Under the pieces are notes generated by a model that saw nothing but the letters and a program-made list of their open reading frames with translations, was not told the origin of the DNA and did not search any database. Source: Trueperaceae bacterium (GTDB lineage Bacteria > Deinococcota > Deinococci > Deinococcales > Trueperaceae). Taken from it: a DNA stretch of 64,000 nucleotides. Position numbers and translations under genes: made by a program. Positions 24,888 to 49,200 of this stretch are shown one piece after another; within the stretch, counting starts at the first letter, position 1; each line of letters begins with the position of its first letter. The stretch is from the NCBI GenBank assembly GCA_965213925.1, contig OZ243927.1, positions 1,248,001 through 1,312,000 of the forward strand, given 5' to 3'.

Positions 24888-25288
24888 TGGGGTGCGCCGC
24901 CCGTTGGTGCTCTTTGAGGGGTCTGATCGTCCGCTTAGGGCGCAAACCCGAGCTAGGCATCAGGTACCTCGTCTGCTCGAGGCGGGGTTCCTGCTTCGCC
25001 ACGCAAGGTGGAAATTGCGCGCTAAGGGTGATATACTTCACATCAACATAGGTGTTGTTTAGTCCTGAGTCGCTCGAGGAAGAGGAAGCACGCTTTTACG
25101 GTGTGACTTTGGTAACAGAGGTCCCTCAAAGGTGACACCCTTTGTTTCACTCCGCCCCTACGGACTTTTAGACTGCGTAACAGCCTTCAGAAGAACGTGA
25201 TGCCAGCTTGGCCACTACGAACGTCGTGTACGAACAAATGTCAATGCAGCCTGAACACCCACCGAGACCGCGTATCTGAGGACTAACT

Positions 25289-27082
25289 ATGATGGACATG
25301 AGCGTCGAAACGTCAGCGGAGGGGCGCGAAGCGCCGTCCATCCTCCACGTTGATGAGCTTAACGCGCTCGCCTGGGAGCTGCGCCGCACCGACCCGAAGC
25401 AGTCGCGGAAACTCAGTGATGAAGCACTTCAAGGCGCGCGGGTGGTTGGCTACGCGCGGGGTCAAGCGTACAGCCAACTCGTTCTCGGCTACAGCGCGAT
25501 GCGCTCGTCTGACTTTCAAGTTGCGTTGGACAAGTTGCACGCGGCTTTAGAGTACTTTGAGCACTCAGGGGATAAAGAGGGGAGCTGTCAAGCACTCAAC
25601 ACGCTAGGCATTGTGTACGGTCAGTCTGGTAACTACCCGGACGCTCTCAAAACGTTTCTTATCTTGCAGCCCCTTTGCGCTGAATTGGGCGACCCCAAGA
25701 GTCTAGCTGACGCGATGAACAATACAGGTATTGCGTACTTTAACCTCGGGGAATACGCGAACGCGCTCGATTATTATCTGCAGGCACTTGAAACCTTCAA
25801 GACGCTGCATCATCTCAGTGGTGAGGTCGAGGCTCTCGTCAATATCGGACTGGTTTACTTTGAAAGGGGCAGCTTCGAGGAAGCGCTAGACGCCTTTTCA
25901 CAAGTTCACTTAGACGAGGTTAAAGACAGCCACACGAAAGCACTACTTCTCAACCATCTAGGCCGCACCCACTTGCAACTCGGTCACTTCGAGGAGGCGC
26001 TCGCTCACAACGAGGAAAGCTTCGCGCTTATGAACGCTTTAGGTGACCGCCTAAACGCGAGCTACGTTCAAGACGACTTCGCCGCTATCTACCTCAAACT
26101 CGCTCAGCCGGAGCAAGCCGAGCACTATCTGCACCAGAGCCTTGGGGTCAAGAGGGACGCAGGCGACACGAAGGGCGAAGCCGAGACCTGCTTGCAACTC
26201 GGGCAGCTCTACTTGCATATGGGTAGGCTCGAGCCCGCTTTAGACACGCTCCACGAAGGTCTGGCGAGCGCCCAGCGCAGCGGCGCGAAGGTCGAGGTGA
26301 AAAGAGCGCACCGCGCCCTCGCCGAAGCGTACAAAAGGAACCGGCAGTTGCGCGAAGCCTGCTTGCACTTCGAACTCCACGAGCAGCTTACAGAAGAGGT
26401 CTTTAACCGCGCGTCCGACCTGCGGCTGCAGGCGCTGCGCGTCCACTATGAGGTCGAACAGACCGAGCGTGAAAAGGAACTCTACCGCCTTAAAAACGTT
26501 GAGCTTGCGCACGCGGTCGAGGCGCTCCACGAGCTGACCGCCTCTTTGCAGGCCGCCAACGACGAGAAGGCGGTGCTCGTGGACACGCTCGAGCGGCAGT
26601 CGCGTGAAGACGCCCTGACGGGCCTCTACAACCGCCGCTACGCCGACCAGCAGCTGGAGCGGGCGTTCTCGCAGGCGCAGCGCTACAGCCGCCCGCTGAG
26701 CGTCGCGGTCTGTGACATCGACCACTTCAAGCGCGTCAACGACACCTTTTCACATCAGATGGGCGACGCGGTTTTGAAAGAGGTCGCTAGGCTCCTGCAG
26801 ACGGGTATCCGCCAGGGCGACATCGCCGCGCGGTACGGCGGCGAAGAGTTCATCTTGCTCCTACCCGAGACCGCCGCCCCGGACGCGGCGCGCATCGTCG
26901 AGCGCATCTTGGCTGAGGTGGCGCGTCATCCTTGGCACGCCCTCCACCCCGACCTCGCAATAACGATGAGCGCGGGCATCTCCGACGACCTCTCCGCCCG
27001 GAGCTACGAAGGGCTCGTCGGGCGCGCGGACATCAAGCTCTACGAGGCGAAGCACGGGGGCAGAAACCAAGCGAGAGTGTGA
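25289..27082 (+). CDS. TPR-repeat diguanylate cyclase
   Basis: Multiple TPRs (ALNTLGIVY, AMNNTGIAY), coiled-coil linker, DALTGLYNRR, DIDHFKRVND, RQGD I-site, GGEEF. Confidence 0.93.
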   Translation: MMDMSVETSAEGREAPSILHVDELNALAWELRRTDPKQSRKLSDEALQGARVVGYARGQAYSQLVLGYSAMRSSDFQVALDKLHAALEYFEHSGDKEGSCQALNTLGIVYGQSGNYPDALKTFLILQPLCAELGDPKSLADAMNNTGIAYFNLGEYANALDYYLQALETFKTLHHLSGEVEALVNIGLVYFERGSFEEALDAFSQVHLDEVKDSHTKALLLNHLGRTHLQLGHFEEALAHNEESFALMNALGDRLNASYVQDDFAAIYLKLAQPEQAEHYLHQSLGVKRDAGDTKGEAETCLQLGQLYLHMGRLEPALDTLHEGLASAQRSGAKVEVKRAHRALAEAYKRNRQLREACLHFELHEQLTEEVFNRASDLRLQALRVHYEVEQTEREKELYRLKNVELAHAVEALHELTASLQAANDEKAVLVDTLERQSREDALTGLYNRRYADQQLERAFSQAQRYSRPLSVAVCDIDHFKRVNDTFSHQMGDAVLKEVARLLQTGIRQGDIAARYGGEEFILLLPETAAPDAARIVERILAEVARHPWHALHPDLAITMSAGISDDLSARSYEGLVGRADIKLYEAKHGGRNQARV

Positions 27083-28812: not shown

Positions 28813-30690
28813 TTGAAACACGCGAAACGCTTTTTAGCCCTACCGTTCCTGATCATTTTCTTAGCAGCGTGCGGAACGTACAGCGAACTTCCCGAGCAGG
28901 TCGCCGAGGCGGATGTAGAAGAGATTGTTGCGGTTGCTGAGTTAGCACCGGACGCCGAAATCGGATCGCAGGGATATAAGAGAGATAATCTCGTGCTCCG
29001 CGTCGAGAAGCAGGTTCTTCCCGATGACCACGCAGACCCACACCCCGCCAAGTACGACATTGATCTCATCTGTAAGAAAAAGGGTGGCGGCAAACTTGTA
29101 ATCGACTTACCTACGTTCACTAAGTCTGGCGCGAAGACCTACAACGTGAGCAAGAGCAAGATCAACTACTATCTCGGCAACACCAAGCACTGCTTTGTCC
29201 GTGAAAGGGGCACGGTAGGCACCAAGCTCGTCCGGTTCAACGTCACAAAAGACGCGAAGACCGTGTCGGGTTTCCCCCAGACGGTTCTCCCCAAAGACTA
29301 CGCTAACAAGAGAACGGTCAAGTCGAAGAAGTTCGACCTCGAGCACGTAAACAAGAAGATCGTCATCAAGGTCGTCAACAAGTTCGAGGAAGAGAAGAAG
29401 GAAGAGAAGGACTTTGAGCTTGTCGTCGAGAAGAAGTTCGTTGACGCGCACGGCAACGAAGTCAAGCCCGAGCACTACTACCTCAGCGTGGACCTCGAGT
29501 GTAAAGAGGGTAAAAAAGATGTGATCGATGAGACCCTCCTCACTGCAGGTAAGCTCCACTTCTCGGATCACGATTTCAAAGACTTAGGCGGCTTAAAGTG
29601 CGAGATCGAGGAGAAGTTCGCCTCGGACGATCTCAAGCTGCATGAGGTCATCGTCAAGTTCGAAGCTTCCGAACACGGCAGGCACATCGCCAGCGGCGAG
29701 AAGAAAGACAAGCACATCGAGGACAAGCACTACAAGGGCAAAGAGGTCCAGTGGGCTAACTCCGGCTACTTCCACGTCCCCGAGAAGGCTGACAAGCTCG
29801 TCATCATCATTATCGACGTCGTCAAAGAGGTCGAGGACGACTTCGAGCTTGTCGTCGAGAAGAAGTTCGTTGACGCGCACGGCAACCCGGTTGACGTCAA
29901 AGACTACTACTTAGAGGTGGACCTCGAGTGTAAAGAGGGTAAAAAAGACGTGGTCGATGAGACCCTCCTCACTGCAGGTAAGCTCCACTTCTCGGATCAC
30001 GATTTCAAAGACTTAGGCGGCTTAAAGTGCGAGATCGAGGAGAAGTTCGCCTCGGACGATCTCAAGCTGCATGAGGTCATCGTCAAGTTCGAAGCTTCCG
30101 AACACGGCAGGCACATCGCCAGCGGCGAGAAGAAAGACAAGCACATCGAGGACAAGCACTACAAGGGCAAAGAGGTCCAGTGGGCTAACTCCGGCTACTT
30201 CCACGTCCCCGAGAAGGCTGACAAGCTCGTCATCATCATTATCGACGTCGTCAAAGAGGTCGAGGACGACTTCAAAATCATCGTCAACAAGGAGTTCAAA
30301 GAAGGAAATTACAACGGTCACGTCCTCCATCTCGACCCTCACGCCTACGACCTCAGAGTGGCTATCGTTTGTGAAGACGGTACAAGGGTCCACGTCAATC
30401 TCGGCAACGATCTCCACTTCTCGGACCACGACGCCGAGGACCTGAGAGGCAAGAAGTGCTACGTCGAAGAGTACTTCAAGTCCGACTATTACGATCTCCT
30501 CAGATTCAGAACCACGTATAGCACTGACAATCACGACGATTACAGAGTCTCCGCCGGTGTCTGGAAGAGCGAGAAAAACGGCTATCAGTACGTGAACAAT
30601 GATGATAAGCCGTTCCACATCTCTAAAGACGCGGATGAACTCGTGATTGACCTCGTCAACGCTGTTGAAGAAAGCAAGTACTACCACTAA
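28813..30690 (+). CDS. Lys/Glu/Asp/His-rich lipoprotein with four repeated beta domains
   Basis: GAGGAG RBS, TTG start, lipobox LAAC; four domains each with a Cys pair. Confidence 0.85.
   Translation: MKHAKRFLALPFLIIFLAACGTYSELPEQVAEADVEEIVAVAELAPDAEIGSQGYKRDNLVLRVEKQVLPDDHADPHPAKYDIDLICKKKGGGKLVIDLPTFTKSGAKTYNVSKSKINYYLGNTKHCFVRERGTVGTKLVRFNVTKDAKTVSGFPQTVLPKDYANKRTVKSKKFDLEHVNKKIVIKVVNKFEEEKKEEKDFELVVEKKFVDAHGNEVKPEHYYLSVDLECKEGKKDVIDETLLTAGKLHFSDHDFKDLGGLKCEIEEKFASDDLKLHEVIVKFEASEHGRHIASGEKKDKHIEDKHYKGKEVQWANSGYFHVPEKADKLVIIIIDVVKEVEDDFELVVEKKFVDAHGNPVDVKDYYLEVDLECKEGKKDVVDETLLTAGKLHFSDHDFKDLGGLKCEIEEKFASDDLKLHEVIVKFEASEHGRHIASGEKKDKHIEDKHYKGKEVQWANSGYFHVPEKADKLVIIIIDVVKEVEDDFKIIVNKEFKEGNYNGHVLHLDPHAYDLRVAIVCEDGTRVHVNLGNDLHFSDHDAEDLRGKKCYVEEYFKSDYYDLLRFRTTYSTDNHDDYRVSAGVWKSEKNGYQYVNNDDKPFHISKDADELVIDLVNAVEESKYYH
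29410..30267 (+). repeat. Tandem 429-bp (143-aa) near-identical intragenic duplication
   Basis: 29410-29838 vs 29839-30267; differences mainly in one short patch (EVKPEHYYLS vs PVDVKDYYLE). Confidence 0.95.
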
Positions 30691-31188: not shown

Positions 31189-32361
31189 TTACCGAGCTGC
31201 AGCGAAATTCTGTACCCAGACGTTGCCAGCTAAGCCGAGACCAAGCTCTTTGTACTGCGGGCGCATGATGTTGGCGCAGTGACCGGGGCTCTTGAGCCAA
31301 CCCTGCATGACGGCTTCTGGGCTGCGGTAGCCTTTGGCGATGTTCTCGCCGACGGTGCGCCAGGTGTAGCCTTCGCGGGTGACGCGGACACCGACCGAGC
31401 TGCCGTCGCGACCCGTGTGGCTGAAGTAGCCGTAACGGTCCATGCTCTCGGCATGCTTCTGGGCGGCGCGGTTCAAACGGGTGTTGAGCGTGAGGGCGGG
31501 GGCGGGACCGAAGCGTCCGGAGCTGCCGCAGCTATAGCCAGTTGCGCGTACTTCGTTGACGAGCTTGAGTATCTGTGCGAAGTCATTCGAAGGCGCGGGT
31601 GCGGGGGCAGGTGCGGGTGCTGGTGCGGGCTTAGCCTTGACCGTCACTTTGACGTCGTCGCGGCTCTGGAGCTTCCCGTCCGTCGCGGTGAGGCGTAAGG
31701 TGTAGGTGCCGGCTTTTGAAAAGCTTGCTTTCGTATCTTGAGCGTTTTTGTTGCCGAAGGTAACGGTGCCGGGACCACTTACTTTGCGCCAGCTCACCTT
31801 CAAGGTGCCGTTCGGTTGACCGTCGTCCGTGACGATCGCGTCCAACTCCACCGAGCCGGGCAGCGTGACAGTTTTGTTAGGGCCTGCATCGACTTCTGGG
31901 GCTTGGTTGTCCGCTGCGGGCGGCGTGCTGGGGGGTGTGCTGGGGGGTGTCGGCGTCGCCGCGTCGCCGTTGTCGACCGTGAAGCGTGCGTGACCTACGT
32001 ACGTCTTCGTGCCGCTCCGCCTTCTCACCTCGATGGCTACCGTCGCCGTGTGCGAACCGTTCGAGAGTTCGGTCGTGTCGATTTCGGTGGCGAAAGGTGC
32101 TTTGCTGATGACTGCGAACGGCTCACCGCTGCGGGCACGGTCGTCGAGGTAAAAAGCGACTTCGGTAATGCTCGGGTGCGCGCTCACGCTCAGCTTGATC
32201 GTGCCGGATACGGCTTGCGTCCCTAGCGAACCGCCATCCACATAGAGGCTGGGGTCGACGTCTTCGACCAGCTCACCGCTACAAGCGGCTAGGAGCAGCG
32301 TGGCGAGTAGGGCTAAACCTACCCATACTTTCTGGACCTGGTTCTTGGCTGTTGGCTTCAT
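31189..32361 (-). CDS. Lipoprotein with Ig-like, PKD-like and C-terminal CAP (SCP) domains
   Basis: Lipobox LAAC; NQAPEVDAG..GTYTLRLTATDG; PA-rich linker; FSHTG, GENIAKG, WLKSPGHCANIM. Confidence 0.9.
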   Translation of the reverse strand: MKPTAKNQVQKVWVGLALLATLLLAACSGELVEDVDPSLYVDGGSLGTQAVSGTIKLSVSAHPSITEVAFYLDDRARSGEPFAVISKAPFATEIDTTELSNGSHTATVAIEVRRRSGTKTYVGHARFTVDNGDAATPTPPSTPPSTPPAADNQAPEVDAGPNKTVTLPGSVELDAIVTDDGQPNGTLKVSWRKVSGPGTVTFGNKNAQDTKASFSKAGTYTLRLTATDGKLQSRDDVKVTVKAKPAPAPAPAPAPAPSNDFAQILKLVNEVRATGYSCGSSGRFGPAPALTLNTRLNRAAQKHAESMDRYGYFSHTGRDGSSVGVRVTREGYTWRTVGENIAKGYRSPEAVMQGWLKSPGHCANIMRPQYKELGLGLAGNVWVQNFAAAR

Positions 32362-32424
32362 TTCTCTCTCCTTTTCGATGTGGCAGGCCAGAACTCCCAC
32401 TCGAAAGAAGAGGGGAAAGTCCTA

Positions 32425-32500
32425 CTTAGCCGGTTGCGCCACTGGCTAGCTTCATTCCAGGCGCCCAAATTCGCGGAATGAGCATCGTAGCCTCTAAGGG
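32425..32500 (-). promoter_or_regulatory. c-di-GMP-II riboswitch
   Basis: Minus strand CATTCC-GCGAATTTGGGCGCCT-GGAATG..GCCAGTGGCGCAACCGGC fits the AAUUGGGCAC..AGUAGUGCAACCG consensus with a compensated pseudoknot. Confidence 0.8.
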
Positions 32501-32705
32501 ATTTTCCCTCAGTGAGATCAATGTAGACCTACGAGAAGTGAGAACAATGAGCAAATTTTAGCTGTAATAGAACTCGCAAAAGTCTCGACTATAGCGTGCT
32601 AGAGCCGACTTCTTGAGTCGAGACTTTTTCTAACCCCTTTAACTTTCTCATGAATATAGGCTTCTAGTGAATCTTTTAACGTGTTCTATCCGCCTAGTTT
32701 CGAAG

Positions 32706-34552: not shown

Positions 34553-35584
34553 TTATGTGAGATTCGGCAAGGGTAGCCGCGTCACCTTAACAGCGCTGAT
34601 GAGGAGGCGGATACCAACCTCTTGTAAGTAGGCGTCGGCGCGGGGCAGTGCGCCCCAGGCGACGCCGCGCTGCCACACGAAAGAGGTTATCTCTCTACCT
34701 AGCTCGTCCTCGAGCCTCTGGAGCGCGCCCACGCTCTCGAGCCGCAAATCATTCCTCGCGTCGTACGGGTCAGCGTGCGTCATAGTGTGACAGGTGAAAG
34801 CGTGTCCTTGCGCCGCTAAACCGCGCACCTCGTCCCAAGTGAGAGCGAGGCGTCCGTCTTCGTACTCGAGCGGGTCCACGTCGATTTCGTGCGCGGCGGC
34901 GAAACTGGCTTGTCCGTGAACAGGCGTGTCGATAAAGCCCGGAATAAGGCAGAATATGCCCGTTAAGCCTAGTTCACTAAGGAGCGGCGCGGCAACGTCA
35001 ATGTGGTTGCGGGTTCCTTCGTAAAACACGAGCAAGATGGGCGGACGCTCATCTGTCCAGGATTCGCCTGCTACGAGCTTTTCCAAATCCGATATGCCGA
35101 TGCTCTTAAATCGCTCTGCAAGCGCCCCGAGTTGCGCTCTGAGTTTGTCCTTATCTTCAGCAAACGTGTTGTGAAAGTTGACCGAGCGGACAAAGCGTCC
35201 GCTGCGAAGGGAGCGGATGAGATACGTGGTGTCTGTGTGTTCGTCCGGAGTCAAGTCCGCCGCCGAAGAGGTGAAACTTCGGCGTTCGAGCGGTGCGGCG
35301 TCCCGCCCGAAGTCATAAAAGGCGACTAGCTCGAGCGCCAACTGCAAGGCCCTGGCGGGCTCAGAAGTGAAACGCTGAGAGGTCAGCAGACGCGCTGTGA
35401 CCTCTTGAACGGCGCGAGCAGGCCTATAGTTCGCCGGGTCGATCGTGCCGGAGAGGTCTGCTTGACCGGGAGCGTTGAGGTCCTCGAATGCCAAGACCAT
35501 CTCGACGCCCTCCCTGGAATAGACGCGCTTGGCGAGACGCTCAGCGTGCGCCTTGGCGTTTTGAATGAGGTCGTCTAAGTCCAT
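34553..35584 (-). CDS. Polysaccharide deacetylase (NodB-like) family protein, atypical motif 1
   Basis: VNFHN, LLVFYEG (canonical LTFDDG), LTWDEVRGL, CHTMTH. Confidence 0.7.
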   Translation of the reverse strand: MDLDDLIQNAKAHAERLAKRVYSREGVEMVLAFEDLNAPGQADLSGTIDPANYRPARAVQEVTARLLTSQRFTSEPARALQLALELVAFYDFGRDAAPLERRSFTSSAADLTPDEHTDTTYLIRSLRSGRFVRSVNFHNTFAEDKDKLRAQLGALAERFKSIGISDLEKLVAGESWTDERPPILLVFYEGTRNHIDVAAPLLSELGLTGIFCLIPGFIDTPVHGQASFAAAHEIDVDPLEYEDGRLALTWDEVRGLAAQGHAFTCHTMTHADPYDARNDLRLESVGALQRLEDELGREITSFVWQRGVAWGALPRADAYLQEVGIRLLISAVKVTRLPLPNLT

Positions 35585-35588
35585 TGCT

Positions 35589-37082
35589 TTACGGCTTTTC
35601 ACCTAATGCGTAGCGTACTGCGTGTCGTGCGGGTTCTCGGTAGAGAGGGTAGAGGTCGCCCACGATCTCTTTCAATTTTTCGGCATCAAACCAAGCTTTA
35701 TCACCGAAACGAGCCTCGGCAGCGTCTGTCAAATAGATGCGTTTTGCACCTGGCGGCGGTGTGCCTAATCCGACGAGCGGGCTCTCTCGTGCCAGAAGTC
35801 GGCGCACGTTGCGCTCGCCGATGCGTCCATAGGAGGCGGTTTCGACTTCCAAACCGGGAATCACGACCTTAACCGCCCTGACGCCCTGCTCCCTTGCTTG
35901 GGGGGTGGCTAGCTCGAGGTACAAAATGTCAAAACCCTCTAAACGCTTGGCGACCTCTTGCAGCCGCGTTTCAGGGGTTGCGTTTGCTAAGTCGGGATGC
36001 TCCGGTAGCGTTCCGAAGGGGATACGTTCTTGTTCTTGGTAGATGGGCGTAAGCTCCGCTTTGAGTTCGGCAGGGTAGAGGTTGAGCCAGTGTTTCATGG
36101 TCTCGAGGGTTCTTTGCTCCTCGGTAACGTTCTGCGCGTGAGCGAAGTGGGCGTCTAAATAGCCTTCGGGTGAACCTTCTGCGACGTTTGCAAGAGGTCC
36201 GTGACTAAAGGCTAGACGTGCTCTCGAGAAAGCAAATTCTAAAAGCGCTTTACGGAGTGCCGCCGCACGGTCTAAGTCGCACGCCTCACCGCCCGCTGCA
36301 AGTTTAATCTGCGGCGCGTCGTCATCCGGTCCATAACCGTTCACATAGAGGTTGATAAGACCAAAGTCCCTTGCGGCGAGTTTGACGTTGACGGTGAGTC
36401 CCTCCTCTTCCAACCGCTCCAAAATCGCCTTAGTTGTATCAGGCACACCTTCCGAGAGGTCAAGTACGCGCCCTTGGTCGAGCGCCCTATAGTTCACGCT
36501 GTTGCCGTCGCGCTGCAAAAGCTCCAACGCGCCGTGGCAGAGACCTCTTGTGACGCTAAGACCTGCACCGAGACCATTGGAGACTGGGAGGAAAAGAGGT
36601 TCGTAGCCTTCGGGAAGTTCGGCGGGGCTCGAGGCGGCAGCCTCTAAGAGCACCCATTTCGACCCTTCTGGATAACGTTTCATGGAGACCCAGAAACGCA
36701 TCATATCTGCACTATAGCCACAACCCGTGTCCAGAGCGAGCGTCACGGGATTAACCACTGCGCCCGCGCCGTAAGTTACCACCAAATCGTGGTAAGAGCC
36801 TCGTTCTGTCTTTAGCTTCGGCACGACCCACAAGCTCTGCACTCGCTCGTGCAGTTCGCCGAGGGAGCCGACCTCAGCTTGGGCGTCACTAAGCCCATAG
36901 CCCGCGCCGCCGCCAAGAGGTCCGGGCAGAAAGGTGGACGCCCACGAATGAACGCCCGCCTGCTCAGCCGCGCTATCAAACCCGGTGATCAGAAAGTGAA
37001 AGAACGTGCCCTTCGGTAGTGCCGCTTTGTAGCGCTCTACGACCTCTTGGAGCGACACCTCTTGTTCTTCCTGCTGAGTCAC
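35589..37082 (-). CDS. YcaO-family protein
   Basis: SLGELHER, SNGLGAG, ALELLQRDG, KALLEFAFSR, VKVVIPGLE. Confidence 0.85.
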   Translation of the reverse strand: MTQQEEQEVSLQEVVERYKAALPKGTFFHFLITGFDSAAEQAGVHSWASTFLPGPLGGGAGYGLSDAQAEVGSLGELHERVQSLWVVPKLKTERGSYHDLVVTYGAGAVVNPVTLALDTGCGYSADMMRFWVSMKRYPEGSKWVLLEAAASSPAELPEGYEPLFLPVSNGLGAGLSVTRGLCHGALELLQRDGNSVNYRALDQGRVLDLSEGVPDTTKAILERLEEEGLTVNVKLAARDFGLINLYVNGYGPDDDAPQIKLAAGGEACDLDRAAALRKALLEFAFSRARLAFSHGPLANVAEGSPEGYLDAHFAHAQNVTEEQRTLETMKHWLNLYPAELKAELTPIYQEQERIPFGTLPEHPDLANATPETRLQEVAKRLEGFDILYLELATPQAREQGVRAVKVVIPGLEVETASYGRIGERNVRRLLARESPLVGLGTPPPGAKRIYLTDAAEARFGDKAWFDAEKLKEIVGDLYPLYREPARHAVRYALGEKP

Positions 37083-41116: not shown

Positions 41117-41641
41117 GTGAGGTGCTTTATCGCCCTGCCCCTACCCGAAGAGGTCAAGGCGGAGTTGCGGCGCGTTCAGAGTGTTTTAGCACCGCAACTC
41201 CCTGAGAGGGCAGTGCGCTGGACGAAGCCGGAGCAGTTCCATCTCACGTTGGACTTTTTGGGCGAGCTGTCAGAGAACGAGGTCGAGGGGGTTAAAGGGC
41301 GGCTCGAGTCCCTTCATTTCTCCGCGTTCACGCTCAAGCTGGGCGTAGTAGAGAGCTTCGGGCGTCCAGTGAGGGTGCTCTTCGTTGACATTGCCGGAGA
41401 GACCAAAACCTTACGCGAACTGCAACAAGAGGTCGCGCTCAGTGGGAGTACGCAGCGGTTTCACCCTCATTTAACGCTGGCGAGGCTGCGCACCTCTCTC
41501 CCTCATCTGCAAGAGGTCGCGCGAGAAACCCAAGTCGAGCCACTTGCTTGGCAGGTCGAAGAGGTTCGGTTGGTGCAGAGTACGCTCACCCCTCAAGGCG
41601 CACGCTATACGGTGCTGCTCGAGGTCGGGCTCAGTCCTTAA
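41117..41641 (+). CDS. thpR: RNA 2',3'-cyclic phosphodiesterase
   Basis: MRCFIAL and two HxT motifs (HLTL, PHLTLAR). Confidence 0.88.
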   Translation: MRCFIALPLPEEVKAELRRVQSVLAPQLPERAVRWTKPEQFHLTLDFLGELSENEVEGVKGRLESLHFSAFTLKLGVVESFGRPVRVLFVDIAGETKTLRELQQEVALSGSTQRFHPHLTLARLRTSLPHLQEVARETQVEPLAWQVEEVRLVQSTLTPQGARYTVLLEVGLSP

Positions 41642-41804
41642 CTCGTTTACGCGCTGTGTGATGGTCGTTCTCGAGGAGCGTGTAGCGCCCGAAAGGGGCG
41701 GAGTCGGCGTCCTCACTTAGGGTGATCTTTGCTTAGCGACCCCTCTAGCGAACGCGCCGAGTTGGAACGCCTTTTAGAGTGACTTTTGTGAGGCTCGAGC
41801 CATG

Positions 41805-41836
41805 AGAAAGAGCGACTTATAAGGTCGCTCTTTTTT
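41805..41836. terminator. Bidirectional terminator between thpR and the small peptide gene
   Basis: AAAGAGCGAC-TTATAAG-GTCGCTCTTTTTT. Confidence 0.75.
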
Positions 41837-41860
41837 ACGCCGTAAAACATAGCGTATGAA

Positions 41861-41989
41861 TTAACCACCCCAAGCGCTGCTTCTTCCGTCGGTCGAGGGT
41901 GACGAGCTTTGGTATTTGCCTGCGACGCTGGTGCCGAATCCGAGGCTCAAGAGGCTGACGGTGAGGGCGACGAGCATTTTCTTTTTCAT
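41861..41989 (-). CDS. 42-aa secreted peptide precursor (below the ORF-track length cutoff)
   Basis: AAGGAG RBS; MKKKMLVALTVSLLSLGFGTSVA-GKYQSSSPSTDGRSSAWGG*; terminator downstream. Confidence 0.85.
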   Translation of the reverse strand: MKKKMLVALTVSLLSLGFGTSVAGKYQSSSPSTDGRSSAWGG

Positions 41990-42046
41990 GATTCTCTCCT
42001 TTTCGCGCCGGGGTTTCTTCCCTGGTTTGCTCTTATCTTAAAGAGC

Positions 42047-42145
42047 AAAGGTTGCTAAAGGGTTGCCAAAAAGGAGGCAAAAGGTTGCTTTTTTCGCACC
42101 GTCAAAAATAAAAAAATTCACAAGTTCAGCGCATGGCAACCTTTT
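42047..42145. promoter_or_regulatory. Phased GGTTGC repeats, putative regulator-binding sites
   Basis: GGTTGC at 42050, 42061 and 42083; inverted GCAACC at 42136. Confidence 0.55.
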
Positions 42146-42262
42146 TGAACCGCACGGCCGGCGTGTGAGTTTTTTGTAAGAGGGCGTGCTCTAGGCTGAT
42201 GGGGCAGAAGTATCGGGTAGGGGGATAGCTTGAAACCAAGCCTCTGCCTCTAGGAGCGCTCT

Positions 42263-43939
42263 ATGTTCAACCGTCTTATCCTGTCAACCCCTTATACAAG
42301 GCGCGTGCTCTTGACGACTACGCTTGCGCTCTCGCTCGGCGGGTGCGGTCTCTCTCCGAGTGAGGACGCCCGTCCGCTCGGCGCTGACGTCCCCGATCCT
42401 CAGTACGCGCTCACCGTCGACCTCAGCGCCAACGATACGCTCACCGGTGTCGAAGCGGCGTATGGCGGCAAGGTGCTCGTCTGGGAGCCGGAAGCATTTG
42501 CGGTCGTAGGGGTGAACGAAAAAGTAGAGGGGCTACTCGAGACCAACGACGATGTCTTCTTGTTCGGTGGTGGGCGTGCGCGAATGGAGGGGCGTTCTTC
42601 CGCTTGGGCTGGTGGACGCTCATCCGCTTGGGCGGGCGGACGTTCTTCCGCTTGGGCTGGTGGACGCTCATCTGCTTGGGCTGGCGGGACCTACGCCTGG
42701 ATGCCTAAAAACACCTCCCTCTGGCAACAGGTTCGTCTGCAAGAAGGGCACGCGCTTGCTAGCAATTTGGGATACGGCGTCAAGGTTGCTGTTATTGATA
42801 CGGGCGTCGACCTCGAGCACCCGGCTTTAAGAGAGGCGTTAGCCCCAGAGAAAGAGTGGTGGGACTTCTATGACGGCGACGCCACGCCTCAAGAGGAGGG
42901 CGTTCTGGGCGAGGGAGGCTACGGACATGGTACCAACGTCGCGGGCATTGTCCGCCAAGTCGCGCCGCGCGCCACAATTCTTCCCATTCGCGTGCTCGGA
43001 CCTGGCGGCAGCGGCAACCTGACCGACGTCGCCTCGGCGATTCACTGGGCGGTGAAGATGAAGGCGGACGTCATCAACTTGAGTTTAGGGAGCGACGAAG
43101 AGGTCAAGGCGATCGAAGAGGTCATCGACACGGCGGTGAAAAAAGGCGTGCTCGTCGTCGCCTCGACGGGCAACACGGGCGACACGGCTGTGTCCTATCC
43201 GGCGCGCTCGGCGACGCGGGCAGAAACGGCTCCGGGGCGGCTCAGCGTGACGAGCGTCGATAACGCAGACGTCAAGTCCGACTTCGCGACGTACCGCGCT
43301 GAGGTCGAACTCTCCGCGCCCGGTGAGAACGTCTACAGTCCGGCTCCAGGGGAACGCTTGGCGGCTTGGAGCGGCACCTCGATGGCTGCGCCGATGGCGT
43401 CTGGCGCGCTCGCGCTCGCGCTCGGCGAGAAACTCAGCGTTAAGCGCAAAGAACTCGCCGAGGCGCTCAAAGCGCAAAGCTTTGACCTCTACGCCGAGGA
43501 AGATAACGCAGACTACGTCGGTCAGTTGGGCGAGGGGCGTTTAGACCTAGCTATCTTTTTAGAAGAGGTTGTCAAGCAGAAGAAGGGTAAAGGCAAAAAA
43601 GACAAAGACGAAGCAGGTCTCTCCTGCGAAGGAGGCGTAACGCGCCTGACGCTGCGCTATACGGGCTCGGATGATGAAGACATCCGCGTGGTCCAAAAGG
43701 ACGGCAAGGCGGTTCTCTTCGAGGGAGAAGTAGACCCTAATGAGACCTTCTCTTTTACGGGTGTTAAGGACGACGGCACGATGGGCAAAGAGATCACCCT
43801 TTACGAAGACGGTAAAAAGCGCGGCAAGTTGCGTACCGATTGCAAAAAACCCATCGGTCCTGGGTTGGTTGAGAAGAACTTCGAAGTGGTCTCTGGCGAG
43901 AGCTTAGGTGAACCGCTCGCCCCAGTGAGCAAAGAGTAA
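42263..43939 (+). CDS. S8 serine peptidase lipoprotein with four GRSSAWAG repeats and a C-terminal Cys-pair domain
   Basis: Lipobox LGGC; VIDTG / HGTNVAG / SGTSMA; repeats at 42590-42688. Confidence 0.92.
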   Translation: MFNRLILSTPYTRRVLLTTTLALSLGGCGLSPSEDARPLGADVPDPQYALTVDLSANDTLTGVEAAYGGKVLVWEPEAFAVVGVNEKVEGLLETNDDVFLFGGGRARMEGRSSAWAGGRSSAWAGGRSSAWAGGRSSAWAGGTYAWMPKNTSLWQQVRLQEGHALASNLGYGVKVAVIDTGVDLEHPALREALAPEKEWWDFYDGDATPQEEGVLGEGGYGHGTNVAGIVRQVAPRATILPIRVLGPGGSGNLTDVASAIHWAVKMKADVINLSLGSDEEVKAIEEVIDTAVKKGVLVVASTGNTGDTAVSYPARSATRAETAPGRLSVTSVDNADVKSDFATYRAEVELSAPGENVYSPAPGERLAAWSGTSMAAPMASGALALALGEKLSVKRKELAEALKAQSFDLYAEEDNADYVGQLGEGRLDLAIFLEEVVKQKKGKGKKDKDEAGLSCEGGVTRLTLRYTGSDDEDIRVVQKDGKAVLFEGEVDPNETFSFTGVKDDGTMGKEITLYEDGKKRGKLRTDCKKPIGPGLVEKNFEVVSGESLGEPLAPVSKE

Positions 43940-43967
43940 AAAACACCTTTTAGAAGGAGGAGAGTCT

Positions 43968-46010
43968 ATGTCCGCGCTAAGTCACAACTTTGCTGCTAGC
44001 TCTGTAACTGCGCCTGGAGCCGAAGTCGAAGAGTCGCTCGCTGACGCGGCGGCGGTGCTTGAACAGGACCCGGCGCGGACATTGGAGCTTGCTCACGGCG
44101 TACTCGGTGTATCGGCGAACCTTGCAGTGGCGGCGGAAGCCTCCTTGCTCATCGGCAAAGCGTACTATCAAAAGGGGCATTCAGCCGAAGCGCTGCGCCC
44201 ACTCCTTGAAGCCCACGCGCTGCTGACGGCTGAGGACGCGCAAGCCGCACAAAGCTCCCCGAGTGCGCTCGAGTGCGCTCTCATGCTAGGGCGTGCCCAC
44301 CGTGACCTTGCTCAGTTTGGCGACGCTGCGCGCTGGCTGGACGAAGCCTTAATATTGTCCCGAAGCATGAATAGCCCTTTGGAAGCCGAAGCTCTCAACC
44401 TCCTAGCGGGTGTAGTGGCTGAGAAAGGGGAGTACGGACGCGCGCTCGAGTATCTTAAAGACGCGCTCCCCATCGCCCAACGCCACGGCTTACGGGAGCG
44501 CCAAGCCAATATTTTCGACTACATCGGTCATATAGAATCCTTTCTCGGCAACTATCCGGGCGCTTTAGTGTCCTTGAAGCGAGCGTATGACCTGCTCCAA
44601 AGCGTCGCGCCAGGCTCGCGAAGTGCGATTGCCAACCTCATCAACTTAGGCAACCTCTACCAAGTCATGGGGCAAGACGAGCAGGCGCTCGCCTTTCTGC
44701 AGCGTGCGCGAAAGATTAGCCGCGCGGCGGAGGATACCGTTATGGAGGCGGCGGCGCTCAACAACTTAGCCAACCTCCATTACGACAGAAAGCAGTGGCG
44801 CGTAGCGCAAACTCGCTTCGAGGAGGCGCTCGAGCTTTCTCGTTACGTCAACAACCGGGCTTACGAAATCGACAACTTAGACGGTCTAGGACAGGTGCAA
44901 GTTGCACTAGGACACTTTGAGGACGCGCTCAAAACGCATAGGGCGGCGCTCTCTATCGCCAAGGATGTTGGCGATAGAGGAGGCGAGACGGACGCCCTAC
45001 TCAACTTGGGGCGGGACTACCTCGAGCTGAATCGTCCCGAACATGCGGCGCGCGCTTTAGCTGAAGGGCTCTCGCTCGCTGAGAACTTAGAACGTCTTAA
45101 ATCCGTCTACGAAGCGCACGAACTCCTCGCTAGGGCGTGTGAGGCGAACGGCGACCTGGCGAACGCGCTCTCCCACCAGCGCGAGTTTCACCGTTTGGAA
45201 AGAGCGCTTTTTAGCCGCGAGAGCGAGGAGAAGACGCGCCAGCTCACCGTGCAGTTCGAAGTCGAACGCGCCCGCCACGAAGCCGAAACGTACCGCTTGC
45301 GCACTCAGGTCGCGCAGGAGGCGCGGCGCGAAGCCGAAGCGGCCGTCGCGGAGCGCACCCTGGAACTCGAAGAGGCGCAGCTAGAGGTCGTCACGCGCCT
45401 CGCTCTGGCAGCGGAATACCGCGACGACGTCACCGGCGAGCACACGCGGCGCGTCGGCAGAAACGCCGCCGCCATCGCCTACGCTTTAGGCTGGTCCGAA
45501 GACGAGGTCAAGCTGATGTACACCGCCGCGCGGCTCCACGACGTCGGCAAGATCGGCATCAGCGACGCGGTTTTGCTCAAGCCCGATAAGCTCACCGAGG
45601 ACGAATTCGACCTCATCTGTCACCACACGGTGATCGGCGCGCGCATTTTGTCGGACGGGCGTTCGCAGCTTTTGCAGATGGCTGAAGAGATCGCCCTCGC
45701 CCATCACGAGCGCTGGAACGGGCAGGGCTACCCGTACGGGCTCGTCGGCGAGGCGATCCCCGTAACGGCCAGGATCGTCGCCGTCGCCGACGTGCTCGAC
45801 GCCCTCACGCATGAAAGGCCCTATAAAAAGGCGTGGTCCGTCGCGGAAACGCTCGCAGAGATCGAGCGGGGGAGCGGACGTCACTTCGACCCGCAGGTTG
45901 TGGCGGCGTGCTTGCGCGTCTTTGGCGAGGGTAAGCTTTCGCCCCTCGAGCCCCAAAGCCTAGCGGATACCTTGCGAAATTTATGCGAGGTGTTGGACAG
46001 GCGTTCCTGA
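43968..46010 (+). CDS. TPR-repeat HD-GYP phosphodiesterase
   Basis: TPRs (ALNNLANLH, LINLGNLY), EYRDDVTGEH, LHDVGKIG, HHERWNGQGYP, VADVLDAL. Confidence 0.93.
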   Translation: MSALSHNFAASSVTAPGAEVEESLADAAAVLEQDPARTLELAHGVLGVSANLAVAAEASLLIGKAYYQKGHSAEALRPLLEAHALLTAEDAQAAQSSPSALECALMLGRAHRDLAQFGDAARWLDEALILSRSMNSPLEAEALNLLAGVVAEKGEYGRALEYLKDALPIAQRHGLRERQANIFDYIGHIESFLGNYPGALVSLKRAYDLLQSVAPGSRSAIANLINLGNLYQVMGQDEQALAFLQRARKISRAAEDTVMEAAALNNLANLHYDRKQWRVAQTRFEEALELSRYVNNRAYEIDNLDGLGQVQVALGHFEDALKTHRAALSIAKDVGDRGGETDALLNLGRDYLELNRPEHAARALAEGLSLAENLERLKSVYEAHELLARACEANGDLANALSHQREFHRLERALFSRESEEKTRQLTVQFEVERARHEAETYRLRTQVAQEARREAEAAVAERTLELEEAQLEVVTRLALAAEYRDDVTGEHTRRVGRNAAAIAYALGWSEDEVKLMYTAARLHDVGKIGISDAVLLKPDKLTEDEFDLICHHTVIGARILSDGRSQLLQMAEEIALAHHERWNGQGYPYGLVGEAIPVTARIVAVADVLDALTHERPYKKAWSVAETLAEIERGSGRHFDPQVVAACLRVFGEGKLSPLEPQSLADTLRNLCEVLDRRS

Positions 46011-46291
46011 GTGCGCCATAGGATTAGCGCCTGCACGACAGTCAACCTCGCTCCTTTCGCATTCCTACCGCTCTCGTGAATCACAAGCAGGGCTTAGAAT
46101 TTATTACGCCCAGTGTTCACACGGCTCTACCGATTTAGACGCGGACTCGAGCCTCCACCTCACCGCATTGACCCTCGTCGAACCGTAGCCTTCCTAGCAG
46201 GGAAGAGGTGCGGCGCGCGTGCTAAGCTGCTAGACAAACGCAGCGGGCACGCCCGTATTTTTCTTACGCATCATCCGACGAGAGGACGCAT

Positions 46292-49200
46292 ATGGCACGC
46301 ACCTACTACTTTCAACTAAAAGAAGACGACAGCTTAGAAATTCCAGTTTCGAGAGAGGCGCGGGAGCGCTACGGCTTTTCCGAAGACCTCTTCTCTGAGC
46401 ACGGCAACCTCATGCTCGCGGACTTTTCGGCCGCTCAGCGCGTGGCGCAGAGGATCAATGAAGTGCGCGATACGAAGCGCTACCCGCATTCAGCGGTCTC
46501 GGCGGGCGAACTCTACGCCGCCGGGCTCGTCCAGGAACTCTTGCGGCTCCTCGTCTCGCTCTACTTGCAAGAGACGGACGGCACTGTGGTCGAGCGGGCG
46601 TATGCTCACCTCGAGACGTCCCTAGGCGACGAGTTGGAGGGCACCTTAGAGCGCTACGCCCAAGACTTCCCCGCTAAGGTCGTCTATACGAATAAAAGGA
46701 CCATTAAGGAGTACCTCGCGGGTAGTTCCAAGAGCATCCCGCACCGCCAAATCGTCTTCGAAGGACTTTTGCTCCTGCGCATGGCGAACGAGAACCCGGC
46801 GATGGAGCGCTTCGTCGAACTTTTCGACGATGAAGGTCTGGAGCAGCACACCGTCTATAACGAGATCATCACGCAGTTGGAAACCTTCTTCGAAGATGAG
46901 CCCGGTTTCGGCGGCAAAAAGCTTTTAGACGTGCTGCGCGGACCCCTTCGTTCGCACCCGACCTCTTTGGACGCTCAGTTGGAGTATCTGCGCTCACAGT
47001 GGCCTGCGCTGAGCGAGGGACGTTTTTCTGGCTTGATGCGCCGCTTGATGCAGACTTTGGGCACCATCCAAGAGGAGCGCCGCGAGCGCTTCGGCGGCGG
47101 ACCCGGTCCGGCGCACGTCATCGACCCGAGAGCGGAATACGGCGTGACGGGCGCGTTCGAGCAGGTCGAGTACGAGCGCTTCTCGCCCGATTCGTCCTGG
47201 ATGCCCCGCGTCGTGATGCTCGCCAAAAGCACCTTTGTGTGGCTGGGGCAACTCTCGAGGTTCTACGGGCGCGACATCTCCCGCTTAGACCAAGTGCCCG
47301 ACGAAGAGTTGGACGAACTCGCTCGGCGCGGCTTCACAAGCTTGTGGCTCATCGGCTTGTGGGAGCGCAGCGCAGCCTCTAAAAAGATTAAAAACATGCG
47401 CGGCAACCCGGACGCGGTGGCGTCAGCCTACTCCCTGTACGACTACCAGATCGCCAACGATTTAGGCGGGCAAGAGGCGTACGACAACCTCAAGTGGCGC
47501 GCCTGGGAGCGCGGCATCCGCATGGCGTCGGACATGGTCCCCAACCACGTCGGCATCGACGGTCGCTGGGTCGTGGAGCACCCGGACTGGTTCTTGCAAC
47601 TGGGACACTCGCCCTACCCGAGCTACACCTTTAACGGACCTGACTTGTCCAACGACGACCGCGTCGGCATCTTCTTAGAGGACCACTACTACGACAACTC
47701 AGACGCCGCCGTCGTCTTTAAGCGCGTGGACTACCACACGAATAACGAGCGCTACATCTATCACGGCAACGACGGCACCTCGATGCCCTGGAACGACACG
47801 GCGCAGCTCAACTACTTAAACGCCGAGGCGCGCGAAGCCATCATCCAGACCATCCTGCACGTCGCGAGGCTCTCGCCCATCATCCGCTTCGACGCGGCGA
47901 TGACGCTCGCCAAGCGCCACATCCAGAGGCTCTGGTTCCCGGAGCCGGGCTCGGGCGGCGCGATTGCCTCGAGAGCGCAGTACGGCACGATGACGACAGA
48001 TGATTTCAACGCCGCCATCCCCGAAGAGTTCTGGCGCGAAGTCGTGGACCGCGTCGCCGAAGAGGTCCCCGACACGCTCCTCTTAGCCGAAGCCTTCTGG
48101 ATGATGGAAGGCTACTTCGTCCGCACGCTCGGGATGCACAGGGTCTACAACAGCGCTTTCATGCATATGTTCAAAGACGAGGACAACGCCAAGTACCGCA
48201 AATCGATCAAAAACGTTCTGGAGTTCGAGCCCAACATCCTAAAGCGCTACGTCAACTTCATGAGCAACCCCGACGAAGAGACCGCCATCGCGCAGTTCGG
48301 CTCCGACGACAAGTACTTCGGCGTCTGCACGGTGATGGTGACGATGCCGGGTCTGCCGATGTTCGGGCACGGTCAGGTCGAAGGGTTCGAAGAGAAGTAC
48401 GGCATGGAGTTCAAGAGCGCCAAGCGCGAAGAGAACCCTAACGGCTGGCTGATTGAGCGCCACTACCGCGAAGTGTTCCCGCTGATGCACCGCCGCGAGC
48501 AGTTCGCGGAGGTGGAGAACTTCCTCCTTTATGACGTGCATACTGAGAACGGCGTCAACGAGGACGTGTACGCCTACTCGAACCGCGTGGGCGACAGAGC
48601 CTCGCTCGTGGTATTCAACAACAAGTTTTCGCAAGCCAAAGGCTGGATCAAAGACGCCGCGCCGCACGCCACCAAAGAGGGCGGGATGCAGCCCTCGCGT
48701 GACCTCAAAGCTGGGCTCGGTCTCCGGGCGCACAATGACGACTTCACGATTTTCCGCGACCAGGTATCGAACTTGGAGTTCATCCGCCGCTCGGCGGGCC
48801 TTGCGAACGGCTTTTACTTGGAGCTGGAGGCGTTCAAATATCAAGTCTTTTTAGACTTCCGCGAGGTGGAAGACTATGACGGCAACTACGCCCGTATTCA
48901 CGACCAACTCGGCGGACGCGGCGTCGCTAGCATCGAAGAAGAGATTGCGTCCTTACGCCTGCAACCGCTCCACGAAGCCTTCCGCGAGGTCTTGAGTAAA
49001 GAGGTCATCCTCGGCTTGCGCGGCGTAGACCCCAAAGCGCAGAGCGAACTGCAAGCGGCGCTGCCGGAGCGCTATGCGCGGTTCATGGAGAAGACGAGGG
49101 ACTTCACCCCTGAAGACGGTGTAAAAGGGGAGACCGAACCGCTCTTAAACCGCTTCACCGTCGAACTCAGCCACCTGCTCCCGCTACCCTCGTTAGAGAC

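Follow-up and report, generated by a model that had tools for sequence, protein, structure and literature searches.

The stretch of DNA analysed here (the window) comprises 64,000 nucleotides of contig OZ243927.1 (positions 1,248,001 to 1,312,000, forward strand) from a Trueperaceae bacterium (assembly GCA_965213925.1). Positions 41861..46010 of the window hold a small gene for a peptide, a divergent gene for an S8 lipoprotein that carries the GRSSAW core of this peptide in tandem, and a gene for a tetratricopeptide repeat (TPR) protein fused to an HD-GYP domain. An original prediction, made from the letters alone, had taken these three genes for a candidate peptide-signalling system resembling the RRNPP family, and we report here what a follow-up computational analysis adds to this proposal.

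The small gene (41861..41989, minus strand) encodes a 42-aa pre-peptide, translated as MKKKMLVALTVSLLSLGFGTSVAGKYQSSSPSTDGRSSAWGG and followed by a stop codon. The product consists of a signal-peptide-like N-terminus, a conserved S-x-P-x-TDG stretch and one copy of the unit, GRSSAWGG, directly before the stop. The open reading frame (ORF) starts with ATG, and a ribosome-binding site of the GGAG type (aaaGGAGag) lies 5 nt upstream; both the ORF and its site were present as originally predicted. The product is predicted to be Sec-type secreted, the sole basis being its basic N-terminus and hydrophobic core. No family match was obtained for the ORF in Pfam or NCBIfam, and the best score in an ESM Atlas look-up of the peptide was 0.81, under the useful range. 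Folding revealed a hairpin terminator at about 41807..41833, 30 nt past the stop codon of the small ORF (-22.9 kcal/mol, z = -3.95; one of 200 shuffles folded equally well). The small gene had been credited with its own terminator. The hairpin is indeed there, but it is not exclusive to this gene: because the plus-strand copy carries a T-run, we read it as a bidirectional terminator shared with the convergent LigT-like gene (41117..41641, plus strand), identified by Pfam and NCBIfam family matches. On the repeat map, a cluster of the motif AAAGGTTGC (42047..42145) stands out in the promoter region from which the small ORF and the S8 gene diverge; it has four copies, one of which is inverted, and of the three direct ones one is imperfect. 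Three of the four exact matches to AAAGGTTGC in the window fall within this cluster, against 0.48 expected per window, making it a candidate operator for some regulator. A simple promoter scan of 41500..46300, which also overlooked the 41807..41833 hairpin, gave no sigma-70-like site.

The divergent gene (42263..43939, plus strand) encodes an S8 lipoprotein zymogen of the thermitase/subtilisin type (Peptidase_S8, E = 4e-44; thermitase 1thm, E = 1.6e-47), which is composed of a lipobox (LGGC), a putative subtilisin-like propeptide, four peptide units, a catalytic domain and a C-terminal beta domain. The catalytic residues D179, H222 and S373 and the oxyanion residue N304 were invariant in 40 aligned sequences. 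The tandem repeat lies between prodomain and catalytic domain, as had been described. It consists of four 24-nt units (42590..42685, plus strand), each encoding GRSSAWAG (residues 110-141), which are preceded by ME, followed by GTYAW and then MPKNT, and proposed here as a peptide cassette. In the six-frame translation of the window, GRSSAW occurs five times, four times in the S8 protein and once in the small ORF, against 0.014 occurrences expected from composition. The codon mismatch noted earlier was also found: the peptide uses GGA AGA AGC AGC GCT TGG and the protease GGG/GGA CGT/CGC TCT/TCA TCC/TCT GCT TGG. Among the four copies in the protease there are 21 pairwise synonymous and 0 non-synonymous differences.

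In an AlphaFold2 model of the S8 protein (mean predicted local distance difference test score, pLDDT, 84.9), residues 41-100 formed a confident N-terminal domain (pLDDT 85-96), residues 118-142, which contain units 2-4, were disordered (pLDDT < 50), and order resumed at about residue 143. The best PDB match of the model was unautoprocessed pro-subtilisin E (3whi; target-normalised TM-score 0.78, 414 columns), and the superposition took in the N-terminal domain plus the catalytic domain; a Pfam search gave no I9 propeptide match. From the model, the units are predicted to be accessible, within a disordered linker that joins a subtilisin-type propeptide to the catalytic domain. The pseudo-unit GTYAW (42686..42700, plus strand), directly before MPKNT, is proposed as the pro/mature autoprocessing junction, with a cut after W146. 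This junction was placed by aligning the S8 protein to subtilisin and thermitase and counting back from Asp179 with the spacing of subtilisin BPN', which we take to be 31 residues from the mature N-terminus to Asp32. Thirty-one residues back from Asp179 is about residue 148, just past TYAW146, and cleavage after the Trp was therefore inferred. In the register of such a cut, the unit is conserved at P6, P4, P1, P1' and P2' and variable at P5, P3 and P2. Subtilisin specificity rests mainly on P1 and P4, and the conservation of the unit fits cleavage after Trp. Since the protein is lipid-anchored through its pro part, processing would detach the enzyme and leave behind a tethered array of cleavable peptides. 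Separately, the stretch before the catalytic Ser (PAPxxRxAAWSGTS, residues 360-373, conserved in homologues) resembles a unit of the form G-R-x-x-A-W-S-G; this resemblance, which surfaced via weak tblastn matches of the small peptides, is probably a coincidence.

The third gene (43968..46010, plus strand) starts 28 nt past the S8 stop codon. According to Pfam, it encodes a TPR region at about residues 40-410 (TPR_12, E = 2.4e-43, 6 stretches), a coiled-coil linker and an HD-GYP domain (HD_5, E = 2.4e-32), and we propose this soluble sensor as the receptor. The HD-GYP motifs H524 D525, H579 H580 E581 and G585 G587 Y588 P589 were invariant in 36 sequences, which agrees with the intact domain originally reported; the domain is predicted to be a cyclic-dinucleotide phosphodiesterase with cyclic di-GMP (c-di-GMP) or cyclic GMP-AMP (cGAMP) as substrate. 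No clear transmembrane segment was found in the sensor, the highest hydropathy being 1.68 (flag 1.6) in an Ala-rich helix.

The repeat proved to be a trait of the S8 family. Among the best 120 S8 homologues listed, which came from Deinococcota-type sources (Trueperaceae, Calidithermus and many metagenome proteins), 102 carried at least two identical 8-aa units at the equivalent position, in 2-5 copies and with the pattern G-x-S-x-x-W-A-G. These 102 proteins held 61 distinct units, in which G1 and W6 were invariant, S3, A7 and G8 were mostly conserved, and positions 2, 4 and 5 were hypervariable. A genome scan yielded 79 loci, of which L001-L054 (from Trueperaceae, Calidithermus, Meiothermus, Deinococcus and other Deinococcales) are family members, as are additionally L057 and the degraded L079. 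Almost all of L001-L054 have the cassette, which takes three forms: 8-aa units, 7-aa units (GTRAWAS, GRKAWAT, G-W-N-A-W-S-S), and an A-B-A form in several Deinococcus. The strict lipobox pattern was found in 43 of 61 S8 ORFs. At one locus of a Meiothermus metagenome-assembled genome (L049, 3887..13281), five S8 paralogues stand in tandem, each with its own variant of a G-W-N-A-W-[SG]-[SG] array. The 23 remaining, more distant S8 loci gave a single exact tandem unit, GRSWAV x2, which follows a propeptide-like N-terminus in an S8 protein from Blastocatellia (Acidobacteriota; L072, 5668..7014). A tblastn search of this locus found no homologue of the window TPR sensor; the cassette idea may reach past Deinococcota.

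The copies within a protein are more alike in amino acids than in DNA. All copies were identical in amino-acid sequence in 24 of the 39 locus proteins with at least two core units, yet these copies showed 320 pairwise synonymous changes. Pooled over the 47 locus proteins with a repeated unit, the proportion of synonymous differences (pS) was 0.54 and that of non-synonymous differences (pN) 0.037, where 8 of the 47 hold one core unit and contribute no comparisons, and where the definition of a core unit (at most 2 residues from the modal unit) lowers pN. These values point to selection keeping the copies alike at the peptide level, not to recent duplication, in line with what the codons of the window alone had suggested. 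Between proteins, the units change quickly. In a tree of the catalytic domains, the window S8 was sister to P0004 (95% identity, support 96/92), and despite this identity the window has RSSAW x4 and P0004 has RSNVW x4. Likewise, the catalytic domains of P0007 (RSNIW x4) and P0008 (TSKLW x4) are 93% identical, and RSSAW and RSNVW each reappear in non-sister branches. Unit switching thus appears rapid and concerted across copies, which is the pattern of pherotype loci.

When all ORFs of the 55 family loci were clustered, the S8 protein and the TPR sensor were the only clusters that both recurred widely and had a family match; the next two ORF clusters, which overlap sensor genes on the opposite strand, were taken as probable antisense ORFs. 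A TPR sensor adjoins the S8 gene in 48 of 54 loci, directly downstream in 46 and divergently in L005 and L008. In the other six, either the contig ends at the S8 gene (L029, L037) or no TPR sensor was found within the flank (L034, L038, L045, L049). No transmembrane-like segment was detected in the S8-adjacent sensors of the 48 loci. Their outputs are HD-GYP in 21 loci, HD-GYP plus GGDEF in 17, GGDEF in 4, a soluble histidine kinase in 4, and a hybrid kinase followed by REC-HD-GYP in 2. This constant TPR input with exchangeable outputs, beside a repeat-bearing S8 protein, marks the TPR domain as the partner of the cassette. At L038 (7324..10599), an S8 protein with GSVTAWSG x5 is followed by a 1091-aa eCIS-core-domain protein instead of a TPR sensor; the same genome has a second S8 protein with a TPR-HD-GYP partner (L022).

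Searches with the small peptide and its family profile found 12 further members (ids among P0122-P0129, P0131, P0134-P0140), all with a signal-peptide-like start, S-x-P-x-T-D-G or a variant of it, one unit and then the stop. Against 1.84 billion representatives, the profile gave 7 matches with E <= 0.001, namely 5 short peptides of this family and 2 long proteins aligned over low-complexity stretches. A profile scan of 10,783 small ORFs met the family solely in the window, L026, L030 and L035 (E < 1e-18; next E = 0.41). Since it was found in so few loci, the small gene is an accessory, and the conserved core consists of the S8 repeat and the TPR sensor. L011 holds another form, a secreted ORF of 82 aa in which the unit GRSGMWAD occurs twice without change; the first copy directly follows an A-L-A signal-peptidase-like site, so that the GRSGMW core is bracketed. 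All five small ORFs at these loci have an ATG start and a GGAG-type site. The two-copy precursor of L011 (10851..11099) lies just past a divergent gene for a major facilitator superfamily (MFS) transporter (9267..10520, minus strand) and downstream of the TPR-HD-GYP gene; this transporter might export or import the peptide.

The C-terminus of the peptide co-varied with the protease repeat, a check that had been suggested with the original prediction. The core matches exactly in the window and in three other cases. P0136 (...TDGRSNVWAG) is otherwise almost identical to the window peptide, and its provisionally paired S8 protein, P0004, has GRSNVWAG x4; P0124 (...GRSSAWAG) is similarly paired with P0012 (GRSSAWAG x3); and the S8 protein of L011 itself has GRSGMWAF x2. 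The C-termini of other small peptides (RSNAW, RSNIW, SLGVW, KMSMW) equal S8 units of other homologues or loci, the two being unpaired by contig. A histidine-kinase ORF at L039 that ends in ...VSAW and so matches the L039 unit was set aside as a chance match, as its L032 orthologue ends otherwise.

To relate the units to their proposed receptor, we compared unit distances with TPR distances across 34 loci. The partial correlation was r = 0.35 when the catalytic domain and HD-GYP were controlled for (permutation p = 0.0005), and 0.33 (p = 0.001) when the distance of the S8 prodomain, which evolves equally fast, was also removed. In the same loci, unit distance was uncorrelated with the prodomain (0.02), HD-GYP (-0.08) and the catalytic domain (0.04). 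Column-wise mutual information between unit positions and the TPR alignment (33 pairs) proved uninformative, as near-invariant columns dominated it. Taken together, this test lends moderate support to a tie between unit and TPR domain.

We favour, with moderate confidence, the reading that these genes form a peptide-signalling module in which the protease zymogen itself would serve as the main precursor, holding several copies of a pheromone, and an RRNPP-like TPR receptor in the cytoplasm would respond to this pheromone and set c-di-GMP. In such a module, the S8 lipoprotein would be exported and cleave itself after W146, and the tethered pro-region would be cut after the Trp of each unit, giving several identical short peptides with the core G-R-S-S-A-W, to which the 42-aa gene would contribute a further copy, its product being exported by Sec and cleaved in the same way. 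The peptide would re-enter the cell, presumably via an oligopeptide permease encoded elsewhere, and bind the superhelical TPR domain of the co-transcribed sensor; this would switch HD-GYP, and c-di-GMP or a related cyclic dinucleotide would change. The family comparison points to a conserved cassette whose copies are kept alike by selection and diversify fast and in concert, a small gene that changes along with it, and a TPR partner with exchangeable outputs. The compartments also fit, the sensors being soluble and the S8 proteins mostly lipoproteins. With the repeat as a family trait, the co-variation and the conserved TPR partner, the RRNPP-analogous reading of the original prediction has gained support, binding itself being proposed.

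Several observations weigh against this reading. Peptide release, import and TPR binding are all proposed steps, and no peptide importer is linked to the module, Opp genes being found neither in the window nor as recurring neighbours across the 55 loci. Generic TPR proteins (LGN, kinesin light chain) outscore Rap as matches of the TPR profile. Of the 55 loci, 50 showed no copy within 6 kb of the small secreted ORF, which the original prediction had treated as part of the system; the 5 loci with one are the window, L026, L030, L035 and, in its other form, L011. In the three Deinococcus loci among these, peptide and S8 unit differ at 2-3 variable positions: RMSMW and RINMW in L026, SMSIW and SMGVW in L030, and SISIW and SLGVW in L035. 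The pairings of P0136 with P0004 (4,393,473 bp) and of P0124 with P0012 (934,698 bp) rest on the equal length of their contigs. Some Deinococcus genes have units near-identical in DNA, and gene conversion adds to the uniformity there. For the 48 closest pairs (catalytic distance < 0.35), units correlate alike with TPR, catalytic domain and prodomain (0.67-0.68), and the TPR-specific signal therefore stems from deeper comparisons. Within the D. marmoris group, units that differ at 3-4 positions go with TPR domains that differ by only 17-24%.

The position of the units invites another explanation, raised as an alternative together with the original prediction, that they are elements of zymogen autoprocessing or activation, acting as a self-cleavage ladder or, in the form of a tethered competitive substrate, setting the time of activation. 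In that case the small peptide would be a soluble, substrate-like modulator of the protease, and the TPR sensor would be co-transcribed merely through co-regulation of c-di-GMP and protease, sensing something else. The units do lie exactly between propeptide and catalytic domain, with the last pseudo-unit at the expected pro/mature junction, their conserved positions suit P1, P4 and P1' of a subtilase site by the general specificity rule, and TPR binding of the peptide is a proposal. Cleavage sites, though, need be neither identical to each other nor lineage-specific, and such a role does not predict that non-critical positions switch in concert in all copies and also in the separate gene. Furthermore, the partial correlation of the units is with the TPR domain (0.33-0.35) and not with the catalytic domain (0.04), and it is the TPR input that is kept as outputs are swapped, which indicates that this domain is the part tied to the S8 protein. 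We therefore consider autoprocessing unlikely as the full account of the units.

Co-variation of TPR domain and unit would be explained equally well if recognition took place inside the cell before export, the TPR domain binding the unit in the unsecreted S8 or peptide precursor as a secretion chaperone or backlog sensor and adjusting c-di-GMP accordingly. Import would then be unnecessary, in keeping with the lack of a linked importer, and a cytoplasmic sensor co-transcribed with the S8 gene also suits this scheme. It nevertheless seems quite improbable to us, as the fast, pherotype-like diversification among near-identical relatives would be typical of signals exposed to other cells, and a separate Sec-exported mini-precursor with ribosome-binding site and terminator makes little sense for a backlog sensor. 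More improbable still is that the units are core peptides of a ribosomal natural product or antimicrobial freed by the protease, with the TPR protein as an unrelated regulator. Multiple identical cores fused to or beside an S8 protease do recall cyanobactin-type logic, the S8 protein has a weak PatA/PatG-family match (E = 1e-13, far under the cut-off), and the window has a YcaO gene at a distance of 5 kb. The score for TIGR03895 was 50.9 bits against a cut-off of 421, however, and no tailoring gene recurs with the module, which places it outside the cyanobactin class. No modifying enzyme is conserved with the module, the S8 protein and the TPR sensor being all that recurs at the 55 loci; YcaO is absent from the recurring neighbours, and the co-variation with TPR would be left unexplained. 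A natural product is accordingly the reading to which we give very little credence.

Within the module reading that we favour, the closest known counterpart is the RRNPP(A) group (Rap/Phr, NprR/NprX, PlcR/PapR, PrgX, AimR/AimP). As set out in the portions of PMC11343458 drawn on here, these systems have a short Sec-type precursor with the active peptide at or near its C-terminus, maturation by extracellular proteases, re-import by a permease, and a specific cytoplasmic receptor of the TPR type. The proposed module follows the same logic of precursor, protease, permease and TPR receptor, and the window sensor, with its TPR_12 repeats and no clear transmembrane segment, is like a cytoplasmic receptor with a TPR-type superhelix. 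Peptides and receptors of RRNPP(A) systems diversify fast. The TPR profile aligned with Rap105 (8rte_A; query 64-408, chain 19-364, E = 1.6e-14), but homology of the window TPR to RRNPP receptors is not established, because LGN, kinesin light chain and designed TPR proteins score much higher. The module also differs from these systems in that its outputs are HD-GYP, GGDEF or histidine kinase, instead of a helix-turn-helix domain or a Rap-type phosphatase/protein-binding surface; in that its main precursor would be the pro-region of the protease itself, in the phylum Deinococcota; and in that its small gene is divergent from the protease gene, not beside that of the receptor, and often absent. 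A term search of the covered text of a paper on RRNPPA evolution (PMC9765709) gave no mention of Deinococc*, HD-GYP or GGDEF.

Precursors with several pheromone copies are known. In Phr3T and Phr105, tandemly duplicated propeptides are freed by extracellular proteases from small, dedicated precursors, and the copies differ and bind with different affinities, according to the same portions of PMC11343458. The likeness lies in several pheromone copies within one precursor; here there would be 2-5 mostly identical copies inside a protease zymogen of 440-600 aa. The yeast alpha-factor precursor has tandem identical copies, which are excised by Kex2, a convertase of the subtilisin (S8) family. That system is eukaryotic, its precursor and protease are separate proteins, and its receptor is a membrane G-protein-coupled receptor. 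On the output side, the HD-GYP domain of the window matched PmGH (4mcw, E = 1.6e-75), PA4781 (4r8z) and V-cGAP3 (5z7c), with E values ranging from 1.6e-75 to 2e-54, and like these phosphodiesterases it keeps the HD and GYP motifs. In the known HD-GYP proteins, receiver or other domains provide the input. On the input side, the TPR domains of kinesin light chain and LGN/Pins were among the best matches of the window TPR region (E = 1e-21 to 3e-41). The TPR groove of both takes up short linear peptides, and for kinesin light chain the motifs are centred on Trp; these are eukaryotic scaffolds, and the likeness is one of repeat type, with no evidence of common function. In the open literature, searched without subscription-only papers, we found no description of the module, nor of a TPR input tied to a peptide cassette, and the arrangement thus still appears undescribed, as had been supposed.

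The module is not the only one of its kind in the window. The original prediction had described a single module; it stands as described, but a paralogous second one was found at 23577..27082. It begins with another S8 lipoprotein (23577..24887, plus strand; Peptidase_S8, E = 1.6e-45) with the 7-aa units GHTSWSG-GRNAWSG-GRNAWSG-GRDAHGS, which shares 44% identity with its counterpart in the first module over the propeptide, linker and catalytic domain. The gene 401 bp downstream encodes a TPR sensor fused to GGDEF, a diguanylate cyclase domain (25289..27082, plus strand; GGDEF, E = 3e-44; TPR_12, E = 8e-32), whose identity to the first sensor is 29% over 308 aa, coiled-coil linker included. No small ORF for the second module was found. 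If the module reading is right, this would be an orthogonal channel with opposite enzymatic output.

c-di-GMP enzymes are mostly orphan sensors whose ligands are unknown. The proposed module, if real, would supply ligands for a large family of TPR-HD-GYP, TPR-GGDEF and TPR-kinase sensors, would represent a new way of encoding a signal, inside the pro-region of the very enzyme that releases it, and would provide dozens of orthogonal peptide/receptor pairs (61 unit variants in 102 proteins). It would also make cell-cell communication accessible to study in Deinococcus, Thermus-relatives and Truepera. More tentatively, and as a possibility that we hold to be less probable than not, Deinococcota may share a phylum-wide, pherotype-forming peptide language, with protease zymogens as their own multi-copy precursors and TPR receptors wired to c-di-GMP synthesis or breakdown or to a phosphorelay; its channels would be orthogonal and, in the window, run in opposite directions (RSSAW to HD-GYP, RNAW to GGDEF). 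The parts of the RRNPPA literature covered here treat peptide quorum sensing via cytoplasmic TPR receptors as characteristic of Bacillota and their phages. The phylum-wide reading, if true, would make this the first TPR-receptor peptide quorum sensing beyond Bacillota-type systems and give the first peptide-gated c-di-GMP enzymes, with a signal coupled to the proteolysis that the cell itself carries out outside. The proposal lends itself to testing, since the peptides, which are short and linear, can be predicted from the sequence, and the module occurs in several cultured, non-pathogenic strains (Deinococcus marmoris DSM 12784, D. oregonensis JCM 13503, Calidithermus chliarophilus DSM 9957, Meiothermus rufus DSM 22234).

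Some further features of the window were recorded. A YcaO-family gene (35589..37082, minus strand) is followed by a 349-aa ORF without a Pfam match (34553..37082 region), and this region adjoins an ATP-binding cassette (ABC) transporter operon with a family-1 solute-binding protein (SBP_bac_1), which we take to be of the sugar type. YcaO and the ABC transporter were ruled out as parts of the module, as they are not recurrent neighbours in the loci. A 625-aa lipoprotein with long, near-identical internal repeats and no Pfam match is encoded at 28813..30690 (plus strand). Finally, a c-di-GMP-II riboswitch (32419..32504, minus strand; 44.4 bits, gathering score 40) lies directly upstream of an ORF for a 403-aa lipoprotein with PKD-like and CAP/SCP domains (31189..32400, minus strand), an arrangement that points to a secreted protein under c-di-GMP control in this organism.

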